From a virus, in UHGV virus genome UHGV-0344388: a stretch of DNA of 10,271 nt; one strand, written 5' to 3'. Positions 71 through 10,271 of this stretch are shown here, in pieces. How positions within the stretch are numbered: position 1 is the stretch's first letter; every line of letters begins with the position of its first letter. The translations under genes were made by a program, and so were the position numbers. The notes under the pieces are model-generated. The model saw only the letters and a list, made by a program, of their open reading frames with translations, did not search any database and had not been told where the DNA came from.

Positions 71-322
71 TTAGTCCTGATTTTTATCCACCCTGAGTAG
101 TTCGCGCAGAGCAAAGGCATCCCCTTTTCTGGCAAGCTTAAACAATGCCGCTCGTAACTCGGCTTCACCTTTCGCTCTGCCCTTACGGATGGCCGCATAA
201 AAATCTGTCATTGCTTCCCGATTTTCTTTCAGTCGGTTCAGATCAACATCCAGAACGTCAGCGATTTGTTGTGCAGTCATCCGGCACGCTGCCAGAGACT
301 CGACTTTCGAATACGGAATCAT
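71..322 (-). CDS. small helix-rich protein (83 aa), possibly an HTH DNA-binding protein of the kind found at the N terminus of small terminase subunits
   Basis: ORF track. GGGGG purine-rich motif 6-8 nt upstream of the ATG at 322; the alternative ATG at 280 has no SD. Helix-rich basic sequence (AAIRKGRAKGEAELRAALFKLARKGDAFALRELL). Overlaps the 3' end of the upstream gene by 65 nt. Functional call is inference only. Confidence 0.45.
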   Translation of the reverse strand: MIPYSKVESLAACRMTAQQIADVLDVDLNRLKENREAMTDFYAAIRKGRAKGEAELRAALFKLARKGDAFALRELLRVDKNQD

Positions 323-1190
323 TTGTCACCCCCATTGATATGCAGGGTGTCTTCTTCCTGTATTTTTCGTGAAGGATTTTTACTGCAGCGTTGTTCCAGG
401 TGACCTGATGGTGAATGCGTTTATGGCTGGCACCCATCAGTGAGATTTTTACGCACGACGGCGCATACATGACGGAGTAAAAACTTTTAACGTAGGTTCC
501 GGAATCCAGATACAGCTCGGTCATTCCGCCGCTGTTTTTCTGCGTCTGTTTCTGCCCTAACTGGACAGCACCGATCGTCATAAACAATTCACCACAGCGA
601 CCGAGATTCGTGTACGTATTCACATCCTCGTTAATGCGCCCCATGAATGAGAACGGTCGATCAACCGAACAGATAAAGCTGTTCATTGCCTTGCGTTTCA
701 CCCACGAAGCATGGCCGCCATTGTCACCAAGAAAATCCCCGCCCTGCGACATAGCGATGGAAAGCGCGGGTATTGATTCGTAATACGCCAGCATTTCAGA
801 AAGGATCGCATCCAGTTTCCTTATCGGGAAATAGGCCTGGTCATAGTTGCGATCCACCCGAAACTGGAACTCGTGATAATCATCATCGAGCTGAATGAAG
901 TATTTACACCCGACCAGTTTTGCCAGGTCGAAACAGGCATTACGGGCGTAAAAAATTGAGCGGCGGTCACCAAAATTATCGGCTTCGTCAAAACGACTGG
1001 CAATATCGGCTTTGGAAAATACCAGCACCTGTTCACCAAATTCAGCCATGTACTGATGCCGTGTCTTATCTTCATCATCAACAACGATAAAAATTTTCCC
1101 GGTATAGCCAGCACGACGCAACGTCCGGTAAGTCAGAACTTTGTCCGGTCGCCCGTGAGTCAGAATAAAGGCGCAAAAATCATCACGCAT
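258..1190 (-). CDS. GT-A-fold-like (GT2-like) glycosyltransferase candidate, 310 aa, cytoplasmic (no signal peptide or TM segment seen)
   Basis: ORF track. N-terminal pattern CAFILTHGRPD...GKIFIVVDDEDKT resembles the first beta strand and acidic motif of GT-A enzymes; a second acidic motif YFIQLDDDYHEF resembles the DxD metal/sugar-nucleotide site. Start ATG overlaps the stop of the upstream ParB-like gene (ATGCGTGA, 8-nt overlap) with a GGAGGAGG SD, indicating translational coupling. Fold assignment is motif-based inference. Confidence 0.6.
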   Translation of the reverse strand: MRDDFCAFILTHGRPDKVLTYRTLRRAGYTGKIFIVVDDEDKTRHQYMAEFGEQVLVFSKADIASRFDEADNFGDRRSIFYARNACFDLAKLVGCKYFIQLDDDYHEFQFRVDRNYDQAYFPIRKLDAILSEMLAYYESIPALSIAMSQGGDFLGDNGGHASWVKRKAMNSFICSVDRPFSFMGRINEDVNTYTNLGRCGELFMTIGAVQLGQKQTQKNSGGMTELYLDSGTYVKSFYSVMYAPSCVKISLMGASHKRIHHQVTWNNAAVKILHEKYRKKTPCISMGVTNDSVFESRVSGSVPDDCTTNR

Positions 1191-1971
1191 ATTCCTCCTC
1201 CCCGCTATGCATGATCGCCACCATGCGCTGCGTCATTCGGACAAATCCATTTTCAATAGCCTGCTGATAATCAATGATCACCAGCGCCGACTCCTCGAAA
1301 AGGCACTGAATTTCAGCGGGGGCATGAGCGTAATAGTCCGCAATTCTGCTGAAATTAAACACCGTGTGACGTTCTGCCGCACACAGGAGGAATTTCTCAA
1401 TATCAGGATCAAGGGACGCCGAACGTATCCGGCTGATCAGCTCCTGAGTTTTCGTATCGTCGTACAGTTCACTGATATCCGGTTTACCGCCCGACGGCTC
1501 ATAAACAGGCGTATCAATTTTCGTCGTATACGGCTCCTCCTTATTTCCTGTACCGGGCAAAACATCCGTCAACAGTTCATCAATTTCTGTCGGGCCGAAG
1601 CCTGTCAGGGAGACATCAAAATCAGCATTGATTAGGTCCGACAGCTCCATCCGCAATAGATCTTCATCCCAGCCAGCATTCATCGGTAGGCGATTATCTG
1701 CCAGGCGGTACGCCTTTTTCTGCTCATCCGTCAGGCCAGACAGAACAATGACCGGAACAGAATCCATTTTGAGCATTTCAGCCGCCATAACACGACCGTG
1801 ACCCGCAATAATTTCGCCCTTTTCGTCAATCAGCACCGGATTAGTCCAGCCGAATTGCTTAATACTTTCTACCAGTTGTGCCACCTGCTCAGTACTGTGC
1901 GTCCTGGCGTTGTGCGCATACGGTGACAATTCTTGTAATGGGCGATAGACTATCTTTAATTTCTCGCTCAT
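1183..1971 (-). CDS. ParB-like nuclease domain (ParB/Srx fold) protein, 262 aa
   Basis: ORF track. N-terminal region (YRPLQELSPYAHNARTHSTEQVAQLVESIKQFGWTNPVLIDEKGEIIAGHGRVMAAEML) matches the ParB N-terminal/ParBc pattern, including the G-H-x-R-x-x-A-A core; C-terminal ~170 aa unassigned. Confidence 0.8.
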   Translation of the reverse strand: MSEKLKIVYRPLQELSPYAHNARTHSTEQVAQLVESIKQFGWTNPVLIDEKGEIIAGHGRVMAAEMLKMDSVPVIVLSGLTDEQKKAYRLADNRLPMNAGWDEDLLRMELSDLINADFDVSLTGFGPTEIDELLTDVLPGTGNKEEPYTTKIDTPVYEPSGGKPDISELYDDTKTQELISRIRSASLDPDIEKFLLCAAERHTVFNFSRIADYYAHAPAEIQCLFEESALVIIDYQQAIENGFVRMTQRMVAIMHSGEEEYA

Positions 1972-2108: not shown

Positions 2109-3566
2109 TTAGGAGCGCCAAAAAAAACCTGAAAACAATATAATAACAGGATAAATTTCAAGGCGACCAAGAATCATAGCTATGCACATTAAATATTTTG
2201 CAATGTCATTAAGCACTCCGAATGACGATGCAGTAGCCCCAAAACCTAATCCCATATTATTAATACATGCAGCCACTGTTGCAAATGATGTAAGAAAATC
2301 ATATCCCATACCATTTAACACCAGTATAAAAAACACCGTGAAGAGAGTATAAAGAAAAAAGAAACTCCATACAGACCTCATTACACGATCTGTAACTATC
2401 TTCCCTCCTACATTTACACTCAACAACGCTCTGGGATGAGAAAGCTGATTTATCTCGTGTTTGCTTTGTTTGAAAAGTATAAGAAATCGAAGTGACTTAA
2501 TTCCACCACAAGTTGAACCTATACATCCCCCAAAGAAACTTGACAACAGCAAAAACACTATCGTGTGCGTGGGCCAGTTTGCATAATCCTGCGTAGCTAA
2601 ACCATTATCAGTGAGCATGGAGCTGGCAAGAAAAAACGAATGAATAAAACTTCCATGCAAGTCATACATACCTATATGCCAGACCTGGAAAGAGGTAACA
2701 ATGATCACCCCTAAGGCTATTAACAGAAAGAAACGAAGTTCAATATCTCTGATTAAAGGTTTTATCGTTTTCCTGCTAATAACAATATACCAAAGAGTGA
2801 AGTTGAAAGCCGATAGCAGGGAAAAAGAACCAGCCACCAGCTCAACCAAATAGTTATTAAAATATCCGATACTCTCGCTATGAGTTGAGAAACCACCAAG
2901 CGAAACTGTGGAAATCCCGTGACAAATAGCATCAAACAAAGGCATTCCTGCAAGTCTATAACAGACAATACAAGCAATACCTAATAAAGAATAAGTTATC
3001 CACAGTGTCCGTGACGTATCGGCCAGGCGGGGAGTGAGTTTGTCATCCTTAAATGGCCCCGGCATTTCTGACTGATAAAGCTTTGCACCACCAATACCCA
3101 ATAATGGCAATACAGCAACCGCCAGAACAATAACTCCTAAACCACCTATAAAATTTAACTGTGACCGATAGTACAAATATGCCCGAGGTAATGAACTAAC
3201 ATCATCAATTACAGTTGCTCCTGTTGTTGTTATTCCAGAAACCCCTTCAAACAGAGCATCAATGAACGTTAAATTAAGTTCTGAGTCAATCCATAAAGGG
3301 AATGCACTAATAACAGAAAACAAAATCCAAAACATTACAATTATAATAAACCCATCACGGGTACGTAATTGAATGCCAGATTTCTTAGTTGTATACCACG
3401 CTCCGCCACCAATGCAAAAAAATATAACGAAAGTTATAAAGAAAACGAATAGGCTTTTTTCTTTATAAAACAATGCTACAACCATTGGTGGCAACATTGA
3501 AAGACTATAGAGCCAAACCAGGAACCCACACATATGAGTAACAACTCTTACATGAGATGTATTCAT
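2109..3566 (-). CDS. trkG: Trk-system potassium uptake protein, TrkH/TrkG family (485 aa from the MNTSHVRVV start)
   Basis: ORF track 2109..3584; start chosen at the second in-frame ATG (3566), giving 485 aa. Polytopic membrane protein with a GVSGITTTGAT selectivity-filter-like motif and a TrkH-like C terminus (GRLEIYPVIILFSGFFWRS). Conspicuously AT-rich relative to flanking phage genes. Position directly after Rz/Rz1 matches the known prophage-borne trkG of E. coli K-12 Rac (from memory). Confidence 0.9.
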   Translation of the reverse strand: MNTSHVRVVTHMCGFLVWLYSLSMLPPMVVALFYKEKSLFVFFITFVIFFCIGGGAWYTTKKSGIQLRTRDGFIIIVMFWILFSVISAFPLWIDSELNLTFIDALFEGVSGITTTGATVIDDVSSLPRAYLYYRSQLNFIGGLGVIVLAVAVLPLLGIGGAKLYQSEMPGPFKDDKLTPRLADTSRTLWITYSLLGIACIVCYRLAGMPLFDAICHGISTVSLGGFSTHSESIGYFNNYLVELVAGSFSLLSAFNFTLWYIVISRKTIKPLIRDIELRFFLLIALGVIIVTSFQVWHIGMYDLHGSFIHSFFLASSMLTDNGLATQDYANWPTHTIVFLLLSSFFGGCIGSTCGGIKSLRFLILFKQSKHEINQLSHPRALLSVNVGGKIVTDRVMRSVWSFFFLYTLFTVFFILVLNGMGYDFLTSFATVAACINNMGLGFGATASSFGVLNDIAKYLMCIAMILGRLEIYPVIILFSGFFWRS

Positions 3567-3703
3567 ATCTAAATATTCTTTCAATTATAACCACCTTGCT
3601 GCAATATTATGATTATACTGTATAAAATTTAACTCCTCTTAGATCTTACTTCACTGTTCCTTATGAAACAATCATCAAAATGAATCATATTGTAGTTAAG
3701 ATT

Positions 3704-4183
3704 TTACTTTAAACACTGTTCGGTTATGTATTGCTGAGCACCTTCAAGTTGGGCCTGCATCATTACCAGTCGTTCCCGGAGGGTGAAATAATCCCGTTCA
3801 GCGGTGTCTGCCAGTCGGGGGGAGGCTGCATTATCCACGCCGGAGGCGGTGGTGGCTTCACGCACTGACTGACAGACTGCTTTGATGTGCAACCGACGAC
3901 GACCAGCGGCAACATCATCACGCAGAGCATCATTTTCAGCTTTCGCATCAGCTAACTCCTTCGTGTATTTTGCATCGAGCGCAGCAACATCACGCTGACG
4001 CATCTGCATGTCAGTAATTGCCGCGTTCGCCAGCTTCAGTTCTCTGGCATTTTTGTCGCGCTGGGCTTTGTAGGTAATGGCGTTATCACGGTAATGATTA
4101 ACAGCCCATGACAGGCAGACGATGATGCAGATAACCAGAGCATAAATAATCGCGGCGACTCTGCTCACTGATCTATCCCCCAA
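3704..4183 (-). CDS. Rz: Rz i-spanin (inner-membrane spanin subunit)
   Basis: ORF track. From the internal GTG at 4168 the translation is almost identical to lambda Rz ([67 protein letters not shown]...). The true start is either the ATG at 4183 (19-nt overlap with the endolysin) or the GTG at 4168 abutting the endolysin stop. Confidence 0.9.
3763..3948 (-). CDS. Rz1: Rz1 o-spanin (outer-membrane lipoprotein spanin subunit), embedded in Rz in the +1 frame
   Basis: ORF track. Translation [56 protein letters not shown] closely matches lambda Rz1, with a VVGC lipobox and proline-rich periplasmic segment. Confidence 0.85.
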
Positions 4184-4698
4184 CAGGCTAATGCGCTTTC
4201 CTGGTCACGACGAATAACCTGTCCATAGCAGTTATTTGAACGTATGCGGCAATCGCGCCCACCATCTTTTATCCACCAGCGAATCGCCTCGCATGCACCC
4301 TTACGATCACCGGCATTCAGCCGCTTATAAAACGTCGACGGAAAACACTTACCAGGGCCAATGTTATAGGGACAGAATGACGCGATACCGGCTTTCTGTG
4401 GCTCGGTCAGTGGAACTTTTATATTGCGCTCCACCCATGCCAGCGCCTTATCACGCTCAATGGCGTTGACCTGGTCGCATTTTTCCTTCGACAGTTTCAT
4501 ATTGGGAAAAACGTTTTTTCCATCCACCACTGTGGCACCCCGACAGATGGTCCATATGCCAGAACCATCGCGGTATGCCATTGTGTGGTTACCTTCTTTT
4601 TCGTCCAGAAACTGGTCAAGTATCTGAGGAGCAGATGCGCCAGCACCAATCAGCGCCAGAACGGCAGCCGACAGGCCGTATCTGATTTTTGTGTTCAT
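4165..4698 (-). CDS. SAR (signal-arrest-release) endolysin, T4-lysozyme-like muramidase (GH24), RrrQ/R21-like
   Basis: ORF track. N-terminal weakly hydrophobic Gly/Ala-rich SAR segment ([17 protein letters not shown]) followed by the catalytic E-x8-D-x5-T pattern ([18 protein letters not shown]). Start ATG overlaps the stop of the upstream YdfR-like gene (ATGA). Confidence 0.9.
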
Positions 4699-5006
4699 AG
4701 ATATTTATGATGAGGACGCTCGTGCTTATTGGCAGGATTTTCAATCTTAAAGGAGTACTGATGCTGCAGATAAGACTCAACTTTTTCTGACAATTTTTCT
4801 GCTACTTCCAGGAAGACTTGCCGGACGCTCATTCTGGCTGCTGCCTCATAAAACTCCAGCGCAGCTCCTTCAACACGGTCCATGGCGACATCCAGGCCAA
4901 AAATTTCACCGTCAAAGCGTTCTTTGTCCTGTAAGGCTACAGTTACCGTAACTTTATTCTCAAAATTACGGACTCCTTTCACAACCAGTTCATAGTATTG
5001 AGTCAT
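4695..5006 (-). CDS. YdfR-like small protein (DUF1327-type) inserted between holin and endolysin, 103 aa
   Basis: ORF track. Tight packing (4-nt gap after the holin stop, ATGA overlap with the endolysin). Same size and position as ydfR in the E. coli K-12 Qin prophage lysis cassette (from memory). Function unknown. Confidence 0.7.
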   Translation of the reverse strand: MTQYYELVVKGVRNFENKVTVTVALQDKERFDGEIFGLDVAMDRVEGAALEFYEAAARMSVRQVFLEVAEKLSEKVESYLQHQYSFKIENPANKHERPHHKYL

Positions 5007-5010
5007 TGGA

Positions 5011-5226
5011 TTACTCTCCTCTCGCAGCCTTACGCCTGTCTTCTTTAATCTTGAAATAAAGATTTGTCAGGTACGTCAGCAGGCCAAATACCAGGCTACC
5101 CAGCACACCTATTGCTGCCCACTGTGAGGGCGTGACTTTATCGAGCAGCTGTAAAAACCAGTAGCCAGCACTGCCTGCGGAGGTGCCGTAGGCAATGCCT
5201 GTTGAAATTTTGTCCATGGATTTCAT
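5011..5226 (-). CDS. class II pinholin, phage 21 S21-like, 71 aa, with dual-start MKSM motif
   Basis: ORF track 5011..5283; start placed at the MKSM methionine (5226). Translation [71 protein letters not shown] is near-identical to the S21 pinholin as remembered: two TM segments and a charged C terminus. Confidence 0.85.
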
Positions 5227-5325: not shown

Positions 5326-5352
5326 AATATAAAAAGCTCGCCGTAGCGAGCT
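5326..5352 (-). terminator. rho-independent terminator downstream of the lipoprotein genes and upstream of the holin
   Basis: Perfect 7-bp stem AGCTCGC/GCGAGCT with a 4-nt loop (5335..5352), followed on the minus strand by UUUUAUAUU (5334..5326). Confidence 0.5.
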
Positions 5353-5477: not shown

Positions 5478-5873
5478 CTAACCTCGCATGTCAAAGCCAG
5501 ATTTCTGAAAATCTCTGTAGACTTCCGGATTGTTGAAGGCCGGAAATTTGGCTTTATGAGCTGCGGACTTTATCGCTTCGCAATAGGCTTTATCACCGTT
5601 ACTGGTAGATATTTTTAACGCCGTGCCATCCTGAGAGAATTCCATATGCAACCTGCATTTTTTCCCTTTCCAGTTATGCGGCTCATCAAGTTTGGCATTA
5701 ATTGCAGCTCTGATTCCCCGCGCTTGCGCCCCCCATTCATCCTGATCATCCCAGCGTCCTGAACTGCAACTACCTGTAGCAGTAGTTTTGTGGCAATCTG
5801 AAGGGTGTAAAGGTGTGCATCCCGCAACAAAACCGACCCAAAAAGTCAACATAACGATTTTCTTTAATCCCAC
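5478..5873 (-). CDS. lipoprotein with a divergent TolA C-terminal (domain III)-like domain, 131 aa
   Basis: ORF track. GTG start with a GAGGAG SD 7 nt upstream. Signal peptide with VAGC lipobox (MGLKKIVMLTFWVGFVAGC), Thr at +2. C-terminal half (GKKCRLHMEFSQDGTALKISTSNGDKAYCEAIKSAAHKAKFPAFNNPEVYRDFQKSGFD) keeps the two-Cys spacing and the P-x-x-P-x-VY-x-x-F pattern of the neighbouring paralog. Confidence 0.7.
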   Translation of the reverse strand: MGLKKIVMLTFWVGFVAGCTPLHPSDCHKTTATGSCSSGRWDDQDEWGAQARGIRAAINAKLDEPHNWKGKKCRLHMEFSQDGTALKISTSNGDKAYCEAIKSAAHKAKFPAFNNPEVYRDFQKSGFDMRG

Positions 5874-6023
5874 TTCTTGCTCCTCAATCCATTAAAATCT
5901 CAGCAATAGTAGTTGTTACGTCCGCCACTGGCTCAGAGCTGACTATCCGCTAAATTTAGCTCAGTGCCGTAGTTGTGTCAGAACAAACCTAAGCCGAAAC
6001 CGTTTATTACAAAACAATAAATA

Positions 6024-6452
6024 TCAGGGTTTAAAATCCAGCACCCCATTTTGAAATACTTTATATACTTCCGGCGAAGGGGGGGCAGGTATATCAACAT
6101 TCTTTATCGCATTCATCGCTTCACGACATAAATCGAGGTCTCCACTTTCTCTTTTAACCTCCAGTAGAAGGCCATTCGGGGCCATATGCATTCTCAGTGT
6201 ACACTCTTTTCCTGAATACTTACTCGCATCCCCGAACTGTTTTTCGATGGCGCTCTTGATTTGATGGGCATACAGACGGATATCCTCACTAACATCAGAA
6301 GTACGTTCAGATGAACTCACATACTGTGTCTCTATTGCTTTATCGGAGTAATATGATGTACGGTCATGATAATTTGTCGATACAGCATCAGTGCACCCGA
6401 TAATAATCCCACTAATAATCAACGTAAGAATTGATGCGCTACGAAAACCCAT
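6024..6452 (-). CDS. lipoprotein carrying a TolA domain III-like C-terminal domain, 142 aa
   Basis: ORF track. ATG with GAGG SD. Signal peptide with IIGC lipobox, Thr at +2. C-terminal ~85 aa (LYAHQIKSAIEKQFGDASKYSGKECTLRMHMAPNGLLLEVKRESGDLDLCREAMNAIKNVDIPAPPSPEVYKVFQNGVLDFKP) aligns nearly colinearly with the E. coli TolA C terminus as I remember it (...YAGQIKSAIESKFYDASSYAGKTCTLRIKLAPDGMLLDIKPEGGDPALC...IPKPPSQAVYEVFKNAPLDFKP), including both cysteines and the terminal LDFKP. Confidence 0.8.
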   Translation of the reverse strand: MGFRSASILTLIISGIIIGCTDAVSTNYHDRTSYYSDKAIETQYVSSSERTSDVSEDIRLYAHQIKSAIEKQFGDASKYSGKECTLRMHMAPNGLLLEVKRESGDLDLCREAMNAIKNVDIPAPPSPEVYKVFQNGVLDFKP

Positions 6453-6481: not shown

Positions 6482-6511
6482 ATTATATATACCGTTGTTT
6501 TGGACGCTCAA
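6482..6511 (-). promoter_or_regulatory. candidate sigma70 promoter for the TolA-like lipoprotein gene
   Basis: Minus strand: -35 TTGAGC (6511..6506), about 18-nt spacer, -10 TATAAT (6487..6482), roughly 30 nt upstream of the ATG at 6452. Hand-scanned; not tested. Confidence 0.35.
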
Positions 6512-6590: not shown

Positions 6591-6985
6591 ATAATGTGGA
6601 GAGAATCTATTGAAGTGCATGGTGCCGGGTGCCTCCCGGTGAATTCAGTACCAGCACCTGAATCCGCGATTATCCCATATACCTACTCGCTGATTGCCCC
6701 TCCGCACAGGGGGATTCACCATGCCAGTTTCTTTTAACAAACTCCCCGCAAACCAGAGAACAGTCAACCGCCTGAATTGTGAAGTATTTAAAAATTTCTC
6801 CCGCTAACTGATACCCGGCTAACAGTCTGGCGTTTTCTTTTTCAGCAACGGGAAAGCAACAACCACCACACCCGCCACCAGCACACCGTCAGCCAGCACT
6901 GACATTATCCGGCTGCTGCAATGCCATTCACAAAAACAGTAAGCAATCACTTTTTACCGTAACAGGTGATAATCCAGATATGTAT

Positions 6986-7339
6986 CTACCCCAGATGAGT
7001 AATCCGAAGTTCATCCATACCACAGGTCCTGGCTATTCTGTTGTACTCCTGAACAAGAGCAAATAATTCTGAATTAGCAACCATGAACTCATCGCAAACC
7101 CTCTGTATAGCATCACTATTCAGAATAATAACGTCTCTTCCCGAAAGACGATCAGGAGCACAGAACAAAACTGTCAAACGGCTGAAGGCCTTTGCTCGTG
7201 CTGCATTGACTATATCAATACGCTGCCTAAGGATGAAACACCCCGACGCCTCATCAATATTCACTCTACCCACACCATATGAATGATAAATATTTAATGC
7301 TGAAAAAACCATTAGACCGTATAACAAACACTCAATCAA
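6986..7339 (-). CDS. hypothetical protein, 117 aa; possibly a gene remnant
   Basis: ORF track only. Begins with TTG; the first in-frame ATG (7312) has no recognisable SD. No family recognised. Overlaps a 67-aa plus-strand ORF that is equally unconvincing. Confidence 0.3.
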   Translation of the reverse strand: MIECLLYGLMVFSALNIYHSYGVGRVNIDEASGCFILRQRIDIVNAARAKAFSRLTVLFCAPDRLSGRDVIILNSDAIQRVCDEFMVANSELFALVQEYNRIARTCGMDELRITHLG

Positions 7340-7449: not shown

Positions 7450-7526
7450 TGGCGCGCTGTACTGGATTCGAACCAGTGACCGATTGCTTAGAAGGCAATT
7501 GCTCTGTCCGGCTGAGCTAACAACGC
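7450..7526 (-). tRNA. tRNA-Arg (anticodon UCU), 77 nt including encoded CCA
   Basis: Reverse complement GCGTTGTTAGCTCAGCCGGACAGAGCAATTGCCTTCTAAGCAATCGGTCACTGGTTCGAATCCAGTACAGCGCGCCA folds as a cloverleaf: 7-bp acceptor stem, anticodon stem ATTGC/GCAAT with loop CTTCTAA, T-arm with GTTCGAATC, 3' CCA. Confidence 0.85.
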
Positions 7527-7626
7527 TGAATACCGATAATGGACCGCCATCGGGGACCCGCCCCCGCACCAACAACCCTGTTATCGTGTCGTCTGCTCTT
7601 CCTGATAAGCTAATGGCGGTTTGTGA

Positions 7627-7702
7627 TGGTGGCCCTTGCTGGATTTGAACCAGCGACCTGGCGATTATGAGTCGCTCGCTCTCACCACTGAGCTAAAGGG
7701 CC
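7627..7702 (-). tRNA. tRNA with CAU anticodon, ileX/ileZ-like (probable tRNA-Ile2, lysidine-modified), 76 nt including encoded CCA
   Basis: Reverse complement GGCCCTTTAGCTCAGTGGTGAGAGCGAGCGACTCATAATCGCCAGGTCGCTGGTTCAAATCCAGCAAGGGCCACCA: perfect 7-bp acceptor stem, anticodon loop CTCATAA, T-loop GGTTCAAATCC. Closely resembles E. coli ileX as remembered. Ile versus Met identity is not decidable from the anticodon alone. Confidence 0.85.
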
Positions 7703-7740: not shown

Positions 7741-7763
7741 TAAAAAACCCGCTCGGCGGCGGG
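7741..7763 (-). terminator. rho-independent terminator just downstream of Q (tR'-like)
   Basis: Minus strand: stem CCCGC/GCGGG with loop CGCCGA, immediately followed by UUUUUUAUU (plus coords 7747..7742). Confidence 0.6.
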
Positions 7764-7812
7764 TTGTAGAAACTCTTCTAACGTCAGGCATAAAAAGCCC
7801 ATCATTATGACG

Positions 7813-7845: not shown

Positions 7846-8667
7846 TTACCTAGTTACCTTTTTTAACTGCCGCTCAGCCCATGCTTCTTCAATATCAAAC
7901 CGGGTCACCAGCGCATCATAGAATTTCTTAACTGTTTTTTCCCATGACGCGCGTGTTATCTGGTTTGTCACCTCGCATATAGCATTAAATGCCTCCGTTG
8001 ATGGTAGTCTTTCATAGCCACGACCACCACAACGCTGGCAGTCTCTGACAACAGGCATACCACGTTTTACCGACTCTTCACGATGAATGGCGACACCACG
8101 CCCACGGCAATCCTTACAGGCGGTGGAAACCTCACCCTTTCCGCCACACTCCGGACAGGCAACTTTTACCACCTCCCTGACTTTTTTCCATTCTTCCCAG
8201 TAAGACGGATACACACCTTTCGTACACTTTGCCCATACCGGCGGCTTACCATCCGGATACTGGACCTTGTTTGTAAAAACTATGCTTTCAATAAATTTTT
8301 CCCCATAGCAACAAGGGCACTGCTTTTTACTCGCTGCGCTGCGGGCATAATCCTCAAAAGCGTACGAAGCCATAATGCGCATCACTACCGGTTTTATTTC
8401 TGCCGGAAGTTTTCTCAACGCCGCCACACGATCGCACCGACTGAGTGCATAATCTGCCAGTAATTCTGTTGCCCGCGCCCTGTCATTCATACTGATGCCC
8501 ATTTTCCCCAGGAACGCAGAAAAACCCATCTCAGCCCGATTCTGTGTCATGCCCTGCGCGGCCATCACATCAGTGATACTCAGCGCATCTTTTGACGTTG
8601 AGGCCGATGCATCGGTCAGGCCAGGGGATTTTGGGGAGTAGTATTTCGGTAAATCTTCCAGTTTCAT
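7846..8667 (-). CDS. late-gene antitermination protein Q (Q-type antiterminator with Cys-rich zinc-binding motifs), 273 aa
   Basis: ORF track. Position immediately upstream of a PR'/terminator pair and downstream of rusA; Cys-rich repeats (CPECGGKGEV, CKDCRGRGVA, CQRCGGRGYE); overall resemblance to prophage Q proteins such as QuuQ (from memory). Start codon uncertain: weak SD at 8667, and K-12 QuuQ is shorter. Confidence 0.8.
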   Translation of the reverse strand: MKLEDLPKYYSPKSPGLTDASASTSKDALSITDVMAAQGMTQNRAEMGFSAFLGKMGISMNDRARATELLADYALSRCDRVAALRKLPAEIKPVVMRIMASYAFEDYARSAASKKQCPCCYGEKFIESIVFTNKVQYPDGKPPVWAKCTKGVYPSYWEEWKKVREVVKVACPECGGKGEVSTACKDCRGRGVAIHREESVKRGMPVVRDCQRCGGRGYERLPSTEAFNAICEVTNQITRASWEKTVKKFYDALVTRFDIEEAWAERQLKKVTR

Positions 8668-8681
8668 TTTTTGACCTGCTC

Positions 8682-9038
8682 TTAATGCATTATGGGGTAA
8701 ATCTTCACCCCCAGACGTCCGCCAGATACTGGCTGACCACGAACGATATTGATTTCATCAAACTGCTCATCGTCCATTAACACTCCCGCATGCGTCAGCG
8801 CATCCAGCGGTGCTTTCAGGATATTGTCCAGGTCGCGACGACGCTTATCCGGTGGCTCTGCAATCACCTTTATCGCCAGCCTTCCGGACAGGCTTAATTT
8901 CAGCCGCTGCTGGCGAACAATAAGCGCCACAGCCCGGCGATAACGCTTTCCCTCCTCCGAGATAAAATATGTGCTGCCACGGCGTCGCCAGTAAGTGTTC
9001 ACCGTCGGCGGGTAAGGTAAAACCAAATCTATGAGCAT
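8682..9038 (-). CDS. rusA: RusA Holliday-junction resolvase (crossover junction endodeoxyribonuclease), 118 aa
   Basis: ORF track. Strong SD (AAGAGGTGA). Translation matches the RusA pattern (YPPTVNTYWRRRG..., DKRRRDLDNILKAPLDALTHAGVLMDDEQ...GGRLGVKI), including the catalytic acidic residues in the RRRDLDN region. Confidence 0.9.
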   Translation of the reverse strand: MLIDLVLPYPPTVNTYWRRRGSTYFISEEGKRYRRAVALIVRQQRLKLSLSGRLAIKVIAEPPDKRRRDLDNILKAPLDALTHAGVLMDDEQFDEINIVRGQPVSGGRLGVKIYPIMH

Positions 9039-9050
9039 CAGTCACCTCTT

Positions 9051-10100
9051 TTACCCAAGCACGCCAGTTGCAAAGGCGTGATCAAGAAAACGAAAAATTA
9101 AATCAACCTGAGAACCATGCTTTTCTTCGAACGCCAGAGGATCCGCATGAAGCTCGTTGTGATGCTCCCGACACAGCGGTAGCGTGAAAATATCGTGAGA
9201 TTTTGTCCCCATTCCGCCCTGACCATGACCAATCAGGTGATGGGGATCGTCGGCTGGCTTACCACAACACGCACACGGCTGTGTCTTCACCCAGCGTTTG
9301 TATTTCTCGTTAACCCAGCGGCGACGTTTAGGTCGTTTCATGAAAGATTCCGGAGACTCAGGATCAACGGCAATGCTGACCACCGTCTTTTCCTGTGGTG
9401 GGTTCTGTTGCTGGTGGGCGTGAGGCAGCGGCGCAAGATTTTTTGTGCGCTGTTTCAGTATGCTGGTGGCGGTCTGCTCTCCCGGTACGATGTCGCTTTC
9501 GCGGTACACCGAGCAGATTTTTTCCGCTGGTAATCCCAGCGAACGACGCGATACAGCCTCAGGTAGTGCATCCACCACCTGATTGCAGACCGCCCACCAG
9601 GATAATTCAGCCAAAGATAATTCCCGCTCCTGCGTACCGCTTATTGCGTGACGGATGACGTCAATCACCCATGCTGTCAGATTTTGTTGAGCAAGCAGCT
9701 CCAGTGATTCCGATGTCTGGTCACGCAGTTGGTTGTCGCAGTGCCAACACAACACCATTGCGCCGGTACCATAACGGTGAATGACTGTTTCAGTGTGATG
9801 GTAATCTCCATTAGGCCACTGGCAGGATGTAACATGACGTAATAGCCAGTCAGACAATGCGCCAACGCCGCCAGCAGCACGAATCACCCGTTCGTTACTA
9901 AAAAACGGCAGCAATGTTTTGTCTTCCGCCAGCGGCTGGCCAACGGCAGGAACGACTCCGGATGGCAGATTACGCATGCTTTTTGGTTCCGGTTCCACCA
10001 GCACTCGAGGATTATGAAATATCTGTATGGATTCACGGCCCGGCTTAAGGACCACCAGCCCAAGCTCAGGCACCAGAACAGGTCTAAGTAATACCCGCAC
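9051..10100 (-). CDS. DUF968-family prophage protein (YdfU-like) with a C-terminal HNH-like Cys/His motif, 349 aa from the GTG at 10100
   Basis: ORF track 9051..10139. Start placed at the in-frame GTG at 10100, which has a GGAGG SD and abuts the upstream stop, giving 349 aa (the size I recall for K-12 YdfU); the ATG at 9977 is an alternative. C-terminal motif CACCGKPADDPHHL...CREHHNELH. Confidence 0.75.
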   Translation of the reverse strand: MRVLLRPVLVPELGLVVLKPGRESIQIFHNPRVLVEPEPKSMRNLPSGVVPAVGQPLAEDKTLLPFFSNERVIRAAGGVGALSDWLLRHVTSCQWPNGDYHHTETVIHRYGTGAMVLCWHCDNQLRDQTSESLELLAQQNLTAWVIDVIRHAISGTQERELSLAELSWWAVCNQVVDALPEAVSRRSLGLPAEKICSVYRESDIVPGEQTATSILKQRTKNLAPLPHAHQQQNPPQEKTVVSIAVDPESPESFMKRPKRRRWVNEKYKRWVKTQPCACCGKPADDPHHLIGHGQGGMGTKSHDIFTLPLCREHHNELHADPLAFEEKHGSQVDLIFRFLDHAFATGVLG

Positions 10101-10101
10101 G

Positions 10102-10271
10102 TTACCTCCAGATCCGTTGCTGGAAAGTGCGGGACGCACGTGGTGGGCGTTCGGAGTAAGGCAATCTGACTGAGATTATCCAGTGACGGTAGTCGAGACT
10201 AAGGGCTTTCTTAACCTCGTATCCGCGCCTGCGGTAACACTGAATTATCCATTCAGCCTGCTCTTCAGTGC
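10102..10271 (-). CDS. 3' end of a gene entering from beyond the window end (C-terminal 55 codons: ...EEQAEWIIQCYRRRGYEVKKALSLDYRHWIISVRLPYSERPPRASRTFQQRIWR); function unknown
   Basis: Open frame on the minus strand from the window edge to a TAA at 10104..10102, immediately followed by the GGAGG SD and GTG of the DUF968 gene. Not in the ORF track because it has no start in the window. Confidence 0.4.
   Translation of the reverse strand, partial: TEEQAEWIIQCYRRRGYEVKKALSLDYRHWIISVRLPYSERPPRASRTFQQRIWR

Follow-up and report, generated by a model that had tools for sequence, protein, structure and literature searches.

Two paralogous prophage lipoproteins resembling the C-terminal domain III of TolA, candidate decoys for group A colicins and filamentous phages

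The C-terminal domain III of TolA is the periplasmic docking site for the group A colicins (ColA, ColN and relatives) and for pIII of the filamentous phages, and import of these colicins and phages requires TolA that is coupled to TolQR. This route can be obstructed by a resident phage: Boeke, Model and Zinder reportedly observed in 1982 that the N-terminal domains of pIII from a resident filamentous phage occupy TolA, which makes the cells resistant to Ff phages and tolerant to colicins. Lipoproteins encoded by phages are also known to exclude competitors. Cor of phages phi80 and N15 is an outer-membrane lipoprotein that blocks FhuA and excludes superinfecting phages. Llp of phage T5 is likewise reported to be an outer-membrane lipoprotein that blocks entry of competitors via FhuA (bioRxiv 10.64898/2026.03.26.714494). 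Here we describe two adjacent genes on a 10,271-nucleotide stretch of the virus genome UHGV-0344388 (the window, over whose full length all positions are counted). They encode proteins of 142 and 131 amino acids, lipo-TolAIII-1 and lipo-TolAIII-2, each of which combines a lipoprotein signal peptide with a copy of TolA domain III. We suggest, with moderate confidence, that these proteins would be TolAIII decoys which are tethered to the outer membrane and intercept group A colicins and pIII of filamentous phages.

Comparison with the described systems defines what is new in this locus. With domain III of E. coli TolA (residues 334-421; PDB 3QDP, 3QDR, 1TOL, 2X9A, 1S62) the pair shares the Pfam family, the predicted fold to about 1 Å and the disulfide pair. 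Unlike TolA, the proteins have a lipoprotein signal with a short tether and no coupling to TolQR, and they are encoded in a prophage between Q and a holin gene, outside the tolQRA operon. The situation of a free TolAIII in a tolA+ periplasm has been created by engineering (Levengood-Freyermuth et al. 1993; Wan and Baneyx 1998). The engineered domain is artificial, soluble and over-expressed, whereas the two proteins described here are natural, predicted to be lipid-anchored, diverged from the host TolA and borne by a mobile element, and their level is probably lower. Exclusion by resident pIII uses the same TolAIII-ligand interface and is the mirror image of the proposed function, in that a ligand saturates the receptor instead of a receptor copy saturating the ligand. 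Llp and Cor inactivate a receptor by binding to it, whereas the pair would mimic a co-receptor of the periplasm, with the invader itself as the binding target; no Pfam or PHROG match of the pair pointed to similarity with Llp or Cor. The pair would belong with the exclusion and tolerance lipoproteins of mobile elements, and what is new is that a hub domain of the periplasm would be mimicked at the molecular level.

The likeness to TolA is itself already known, as both proteins are labelled as TolA-domain proteins by RefSeq and RAST. The RefSeq label is 'cell envelope integrity TolA C-terminal domain-containing protein', and the gene for the 142-aa protein is wrongly named tolA. Both proteins belong to PHROG 5772, which is annotated as 'unknown function' (E 1.8e-61 and 6.7e-65). 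The original prediction had stated that no characterised function was known for such proteins, and this was borne out: a functional description of the pair was found neither by full-text searches of the literature nor in PHROGs, NCBIfam or PADLOC, and a 2020 review of the Tol-Pal system does not mention paralogous or prophage copies of TolA. The architecture and its likely meaning seem unexplored so far. A gene of prophage CP-933O that was likened to TolA, EDL933_2012, may be a homologue and is reported to be induced 32-fold by ciprofloxacin (PMC11125564).

The 142-aa protein starts with MGFRSASILTLIISGIIIGC, followed by TDA, and this N-terminus shows a charged n-region, a hydrophobic core and the lipobox I-I-G-C20, with Thr at position +2 and Asp at +3. 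A GAGGA Shine-Dalgarno sequence is located 4 nt 5' of the ATG. Beyond a disordered linker, residues 55-142 align without gaps to residues 334-421 of E. coli TolA (phmmer E 1.9e-27 in a search of solved-structure sequences), with 51 of the 88 positions identical (58%). Cysteines C84 and C109 correspond to C363 and C388 of TolA, and the terminal LDFKP is unchanged. The reading frame, the IIGC lipobox with its Thr at +2 and a near residue-for-residue alignment that includes both cysteines and the C-terminus had been claimed from the letters of the sequence, and each of these features was found.

The 131-aa protein is a diverged paralogue that shares 28% identity with the 142-aa protein over the full length. 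Its N-terminus, MGLKKIVMLTFWVGFVAGC followed by TPL, also consists of a charged n-region, a hydrophobic core and a lipobox, V-A-G-C19, again with Thr at +2. The alignment with TolA covers 79-80 residues (E 5e-9), and 27 of 88 positions are identical. C73 and C98 have the 25-residue spacing seen in TolA and in the 142-aa protein. The expected diverged copy of domain III with conserved cysteine spacing is thus present, and only the proposed common tail motif needs correction: P-x-x-P-x-VY-x-x-F occurs in the 142-aa protein, whereas the 131-aa protein has P-x-x-x-x-P-x-VY-x-x-F. Two extra cysteines, C27 and C36, occur in the linker within the conserved sequence CHKTTATGSC (residues 27-36, window 5754-5795, minus strand). 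They are invariant among the aligned homologues of the 131-aa protein, are missing from TolA and the 142-aa copy, and may form a second disulfide loop. The gene has a GTG start at 5873 preceded by a GAGGAG Shine-Dalgarno sequence. On E. coli chromosomes RefSeq lets the gene begin at an internal ATG (375 nt, 124 aa); the GTG start restores an MGLKK n-region, and the same n-region is found, with ATG, in the plasmid homologues.

As read from the letters themselves, the lipoprotein processing regions are IIGC followed by TD and VAGC followed by TP; both fit the lipobox pattern [LVI][ASTVI][GAS]C and have a residue other than Asp at +2. These features suggest that both proteins are lipidated and located in the outer membrane. 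As was anticipated, both also belong to the TolA C-terminal family of Pfam (PF06519), for which the gathering threshold is 25 bits: the 142-aa protein scores 80.9 bits (E 8e-23, model positions 4-96 of 96) and the 131-aa protein 54.6 bits (E 1.3e-14, positions 10-92 of 96). AlphaFold2 (AF2) models of the two proteins have a disordered N-terminus, comprising signal peptide and linker, and a domain with a predicted local distance difference test score (pLDDT) of about 90. The superposition on TolA domain III proposed earlier also gave a clear result. In Foldseek comparisons the modelled domains match TolAIII crystal structures with a root-mean-square deviation of 1.0 Å and a template modelling (TM) score of 0.90 (3QDR_A) or 1.1 Å and 0.92 (3QDP), and the matches include TolAIII chains that were crystallised with ColA, M13 g3p and IF1 g3p. 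Both predicted domains have the three-stranded sheet against helices and the conserved cysteine pair of the TolAIII fold.

The models for complete TolA give a different picture. Matches to these equivalog models are confined to the last ~95 model positions. Both proteins fail NF007065 (105.4 bits for the 142-aa and 53.7 bits for the 131-aa protein, at a cut-off of 213). With TIGR02794, which has a cut-off of 59.45, the 142-aa protein is above (73.9 bits) and the 131-aa protein below (47.2 bits) the limit, and passing this cut-off is probably the reason that RefSeq misnamed the 142-aa gene tolA. Neither protein has domain I of TolA, the membrane anchor, or the long helical domain II; in their place are a lipoprotein signal and a disordered linker of 25-35 residues. 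The pair represents the last domain of TolA on a predicted lipid tether and not bona fide TolA. With this arrangement, the domain would hang from the outer membrane and could not be energised.

Two faces of TolAIII are known to bind partners. The first is formed by the edge strand beta3 (A415-K420) and helix alpha1 and accommodates TolB, g3p and ColN via beta-strand augmentation (PMC4339652; PMC7391070). The second consists of beta2, L375-P380 (LLDIKP), together with K368, K379 and K396, and is used by colicin A (PMC3365938). In the 142-aa protein the face for TolB, g3p and ColN is the most conserved portion of the domain: identity to TolA is 12 of 19 in alpha1 (334-352), 10 of 15 in segment 400-414 and 5 of 7 in beta3 (415-421; GVLDFKP vs APLDFKP), as compared to 5 of 15 in alpha2 (385-399). 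The ColA site is largely retained as LLEVKR, with H, K and K in the place of the three lysines. For the 131-aa protein the corresponding values are 5 of 19, 4 of 15, 1 of 7 (SGFDMRG) and, in alpha2, 7 of 15, and the ColA site is lost (ALKIST; E, S and H). The 142-aa protein thus keeps both known binding faces. In the 131-aa protein the edge-strand character of beta3 is kept by strand-forming residues, but the cationic ColA site is gone. Among relatives, the L-D-F-K of beta3 is equally conserved in 56 diverse short lipoproteins and in 38 long proteins (at least 250 aa) that were taken as full-length TolA.

Both genes are under purifying selection. The ratio of non-synonymous to synonymous substitution rates (dN/dS) is 0.07-0.18 in the 131-aa family; the 142-aa family has values of 0.26 for the TolAIII portion and 0.50 for the tether. 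Phage mEp460_ev081 and prophages of 773 among 5,426 complete E. coli genomes contain the 1.3-kb stretch with the pair at 99.9-100% identity. The 142-aa gene is present in 888 of these genomes (~16%), and 950 of its 952 copies are chromosomal. A scan of viral contigs gave no contextual diversity, as all 80 loci kept were 99% identical to the window. An exhaustive profile search yielded 524 significant representatives of 50%-identity clusters. The best 150 of these include 60 lipobox proteins of 100-170 aa, none of which has Asp at +2. Members with a name, found in Enterobacter, Klebsiella, Serratia, Hafnia, Leclercia and Dryocola, carry the labels 'TolA' or 'colicin import membrane protein'. 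For one distant representative (P0178), the surrounding DNA amounted to a contig of 964 bp. Elsewhere the 131-aa family occurs as a chromosomal single-gene orphan in ~35 further enterobacterial species, surrounded by unrelated genes and without phage genes nearby. Across genera no neighbours of this family were conserved beyond the genus level (DcuB, glutathione peroxidase, omptin, SRAP and LysR were seen), which rules out a multi-gene system. The varied carriers of mobile or accessory DNA likewise indicate that the functional unit is one gene.

Relatives on other phages and on plasmids give further clues to function. In phages of the Stx type, a variant with 65% identity to the 142-aa gene stands alone between Q and the genes for nanS-p esterase, DUF1378, DUF826 and holin. 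This is the exact site of stx in Stx phages, in agreement with the suggestion that the genes occupy the stx slot. Copies of the 131-aa family with 87-88% nucleotide identity are found on ~600 plasmids. In IncB/O, IncK2/Z and IncI-gamma/K1 plasmids (I-complex, MPF_I) the homologue is located 68 nt 3' of the relaxase genes nikA-nikB and on the same strand, and therefore it is probably co-transcribed with them. The I pili of I-complex plasmids are the receptor of the TolA-dependent filamentous phage IF1, and pIII of IF1 binds to TolA-C through a permanently exposed site (PMC7911016; structure PDB 2X9A). As these plasmids display the IF1 receptor, a decoy encoded beside the transfer genes makes sense. 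On pO157-type IncF plasmids the 131-aa family follows psiB-psiA-hok. A more distant lipo-TolAIII is encoded on the CloDF13-type plasmid p2_020003 of Klebsiella pneumoniae (10,060 bp), adjoining the cloacin-immunity-lysis operon. There (locus L005, 5905-6638) its gene has an overlap of 4 nt with the gene for a protein with a signal peptide and a TonB C-terminal domain alone (PF03544, E 9e-11), which may be the TonB-pathway counterpart of the TolA copy. The combination of lipo-TolAIII and TonB-C beside a cloacin operon points to bacteriocin import pathways. This cassette replaces genes K and L of CloDF13. The possibility that K and L are themselves such a pair was considered and rejected, as translation and blastn showed unrelated proteins at the same position of the backbone. 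Another distant lipo-TolAIII copy is present on a Klebsiella IncR plasmid beside a gene for a thioredoxin-fold protein.

In the window, the pair was thought to form a self-contained moron in the late-region slot. The gene order of Q, tRNAs, pair and holin confirms the slot, and the layout is moron-like. The G+C content of the pair is 0.38-0.46, against ~0.47-0.50 in the phage genes on both sides. A promoter-like site lies ~30 nt upstream of the 142-aa gene and a terminator-like hairpin, GC-rich and followed by a T-run, lies between the 131-aa gene and the holin gene; both are matches to consensus only, and to this extent the claim of the pair's own promoter and terminator is qualified. The pair is situated in the late transcription unit of Q, and Q-modified polymerase would read through it during lytic growth.

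In view of the above, the following mechanism can be considered for the decoy function that we favour. Lipidation of the pre-lipoproteins would take place at Cys20 in the 142-aa and at Cys19 in the 131-aa protein. A flexible tether of ~25-35 residues would then suspend an entire TolA domain III, with its disulfide bond, in the outer periplasm. Here the decoy could catch the translocation domain of a colicin, or N1 of pIII, when this appears beneath the outer membrane. As the decoys have no link to TolQR or to the proton-motive force, an invader caught by them would stay there and not be pulled in, and the lysogen, plasmid host or chromosomal carrier would be tolerant. The two paralogues would probably cover different ligands, widening the range. 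There is precedent from artificial constructs: exported TolAIII causes a leaky outer membrane (PMC6195910), and Levengood-Freyermuth et al. reportedly observed in 1993 that it makes cells tolerant to colicins. For TolA, affinities of ~1 µM for ColN and ~40 µM for TolB were reported (PMC4339652). As ColN binds to TolAIII about 40 times tighter than TolB, invaders would be trapped preferentially, and a moderate amount of decoy should trap them without seriously starving the host Tol-Pal system. Ligand binding and protection by the pair are predictions from sequence. Circumstantial support for a decoy or Tol-Pal function comes from the relatives on I-complex plasmids, the cloacin-adjacent relative with its TonB-C partner, and the retention of beta3 in the 142-aa protein (5/7). 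Moreover, the observed placements, which are the moron slot, the stx site, the position after nikB, the neighbourhood of cloacin genes and chromosomal orphans, are typical of single-gene protective cargo.

A broader proposal, which we put forward more tentatively, is that mobile elements of Enterobacterales (prophages, I-complex, IncF and bacteriocin plasmids, and small chromosomal islets) spread 'translocon decoys', in the form of tethered TolAIII and, in at least one plasmid, secreted TonB-C. Such decoys would give broad, receptor-independent periplasmic tolerance to Tol- and Ton-dependent bacteriocins and to pilus-specific filamentous phages. They would be distinct from immunity proteins, receptor blockers and intracellular defence, and would explain how conjugative plasmids can afford the pili to which filamentous phages attach. 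TolA domain III is a gateway shared by group A colicins and filamentous phages, and artificial periplasmic copies disturb this gateway; the existence of natural copies under purifying selection suggests that bacteria and mobile elements already exploit the same trick. Such copies are present in about 16% of complete E. coli genomes, and also on pO157, on I-complex resistance plasmids and on a cloacin plasmid. If the decoy function is correct, it adds a simple single-gene mechanism of colicin and phage tolerance, with a bearing on colicin- and phage-based therapeutics and on hosts for phage display. The proteins would also be natural probes of the TolAIII face that each invader needs, and a widespread mis-annotation would be corrected, as the genes are not tolA.

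Several considerations weigh against the decoy function. Full-text searches of the literature found no experiments on these proteins, and neither protein matches the PADLOC defence models. A single molecule of colicin is enough to kill a cell, so that a decoy which works stoichiometrically may do no more than delay killing. Many E. coli lysogens are without conjugative pili, and therefore filamentous phage is not the selective agent everywhere. Ordinary chromosomal genes surround the 131-aa family in other enterobacteria, and a physiological role in the envelope also fits. The promoter region could not be aligned with the region upstream of the 65%-identical variant and thus lacks comparative support; as a bare consensus match that is not conserved in the variant locus, it leaves room for expression of the pair mainly late in lytic growth. 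Finally, a tethered TolAIII could equally bind TolB.

Binding to TolB would make the pair an antagonist of Tol-Pal, which we consider possible but on the unlikely side. In this scenario tethered TolAIII would compete with energised TolA for the N-terminal strand of TolB at the outer membrane. TolB-Pal would remain undissociated, Pal would not be mobilised, and the outer membrane would be loosened, with leakiness and hyper-vesiculation as a result. The proteins would then be late products that aid lysis or the release of progeny or cargo, and a low level in lysogens could raise vesicle production. The TolB-binding elements beta3 and alpha1 are the best-conserved parts of the 142-aa protein (PMC4339652; PMC7391070), and modulated TolB interactions could regulate vesiculation according to a review of Tol-Pal (PMC7391070). 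Leakage of periplasmic proteins from E. coli is caused by artificial TolAIII that is exported with a signal sequence (Wan and Baneyx 1998, applied in PMC6195910), a phenotype that would fit an antagonist. The pair is also part of a Q-dependent late unit immediately ahead of the lysis cassette; however, the slot makes any gene late-expressed, as it does stx, so the position is uninformative. High expression would be needed in view of the weak TolA-TolB affinity (40-200 µM), and stable carriage on conjugative plasmids and chromosomes under strong purifying selection is hard to square with a membrane-damaging product. If antagonism is nevertheless correct, the pair would regulate Tol-Pal and vesicle formation naturally, which would also be of interest.

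It is unlikely that the same fold serves another partner. Examples would be a periplasmic step in the DNA entry of other tailed phages, a conjugative element on its way in (entry exclusion) or some protein of the host envelope. Such a partner is plausible chiefly for the 131-aa family, in view of its 27 of 88 identities to TolA, the lost ColA site, the changed beta3 (SGFDMRG) and the extra conserved cysteine pair in the linker (CHKTTATGSC). The position behind the relaxase genes of I-complex plasmids could indicate a role related to conjugation, but no tailed coliphage or conjugation system is known to require TolAIII. Furthermore, beta-strand augmentation depends little on side chains (PMC4339652), so that the divergence is compatible with the classical ligands, and at 58% identity the 142-aa protein is too near TolA for a new specificity. 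That the genes are relics, i.e. captured 3' fragments of tolA merely carried along by the prophage, is very improbable. The RefSeq label 'tolA' on one of them and the partial copies in databases would agree with such an origin. However, both reading frames are intact and have Shine-Dalgarno sites and canonical lipoboxes, dN/dS is 0.07-0.26, 60 of the best 150 of the 524 significant cluster representatives share the lipoprotein architecture, and the locus is near-identical across hundreds of genomes. On the basis of dN/dS and architecture the gene-fragment or pseudogene reading was rejected.

Table 1. Features of the locus and its surroundings. Positions refer to the window, except in the last three rows, where they refer to the plasmid locus named.
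Feature	Position	Strand	Remarks
lipo-TolAIII-1 gene	6024-6452	-	142 aa
signal peptide and lipobox, 142-aa protein	Cys20 codon 6393-6395	-	residues 1-20
disordered linker, 142-aa protein	6291-6392	-	residues 21-54
TolA domain III, 142-aa protein	6027-6290	-	residues 55-142
inter-gene spacer	5874..6023	-	150 nt; holds GAGGAG Shine-Dalgarno sequence of second gene
weak promoter-like match inside spacer	5981..5953	-	
lipo-TolAIII-2 gene	5478-5873	-	131 aa; GTG start
signal peptide and lipobox, 131-aa protein	Cys19 codon 5817-5819	-	residues 1-19
TolA domain III, 131-aa protein	5481-5738	-	roughly residues 46-131
promoter-like site, sigma-70 type	6511..6482	-	TTGAGC-18-TATAAT; 10/12 consensus match
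intrinsic-terminator-like hairpin between pair and holin	5352..5335	-	AGCTCGC-TACG-GCGAGCT, then TTTTTAT
DUF968/YdfU	9051-10139	-	
RusA	8682-9038	-	
late antiterminator Q	7846-8667	-	PF03589, E 1.4e-54
terminator-like hairpin	7765..7746	-	directly downstream of Q, tR'-type position
two phage tRNA genes	7450-7702	-	Arg-TCT and CAT anticodon; such tRNAs precede stx in Stx phages
DUF3927	6819-6950	-	
holin, P21 S type	5011-5226	-	PF04971, E 5.5e-36; first gene of lysis cassette, immediately downstream of pair
DUF1327/YdfR	4695-5006	-	
lysozyme	4165-4698	-	
Rz/Rz1	3704-4183	-	
trkG-like TrkH potassium transporter	2109-3584	-	directly after Rz/Rz1
ParB_N-domain protein	1183-1971	-	
TET-associated glycosyltransferase	258-1190	-	PF20691, E 5.5e-35
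131-aa homologue, I-complex plasmid locus L003	6004-6435		
131-aa homologue, I-complex plasmid locus L127	3465-3896		
131-aa homologue, I-complex plasmid locus L128	3465-3896		

The window as a whole covers the region for late regulation and lysis in a lambda-like prophage of the Qin/Rac type, which is read from the minus strand (Table 1). The tRNA gene at 7627-7702 (minus strand) is assigned as tRNA-Met (CAT) by ARAGORN, and its counterpart in a related prophage is tRNA-Ile in RefSeq. If it is a tRNA-Ile, it would be a lysidine tRNA of the ileZ type, like the one that precedes stx in Stx phages. Neither Pfam nor PADLOC gave a match for an open reading frame of 117 aa at 6986-7339 (minus strand), which is located between the tRNAs and DUF3927. 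RefSeq does not annotate it in its copy of the locus, and it may not be a genuine gene.

Downstream of the lysis genes, the trkG-like gene has a G+C content of 0.34-0.42, compared to ~0.50 around it, and is broken into several pieces in the Shigella flexneri copy of the region. It is a second accessory insertion within the same late region. Near the packaging end of the prophage, the gene for the TET-associated glycosyltransferase overlaps that for the ParB_N-domain protein by 8 nt, and together they look like a phage DNA-modification or anti-restriction module.

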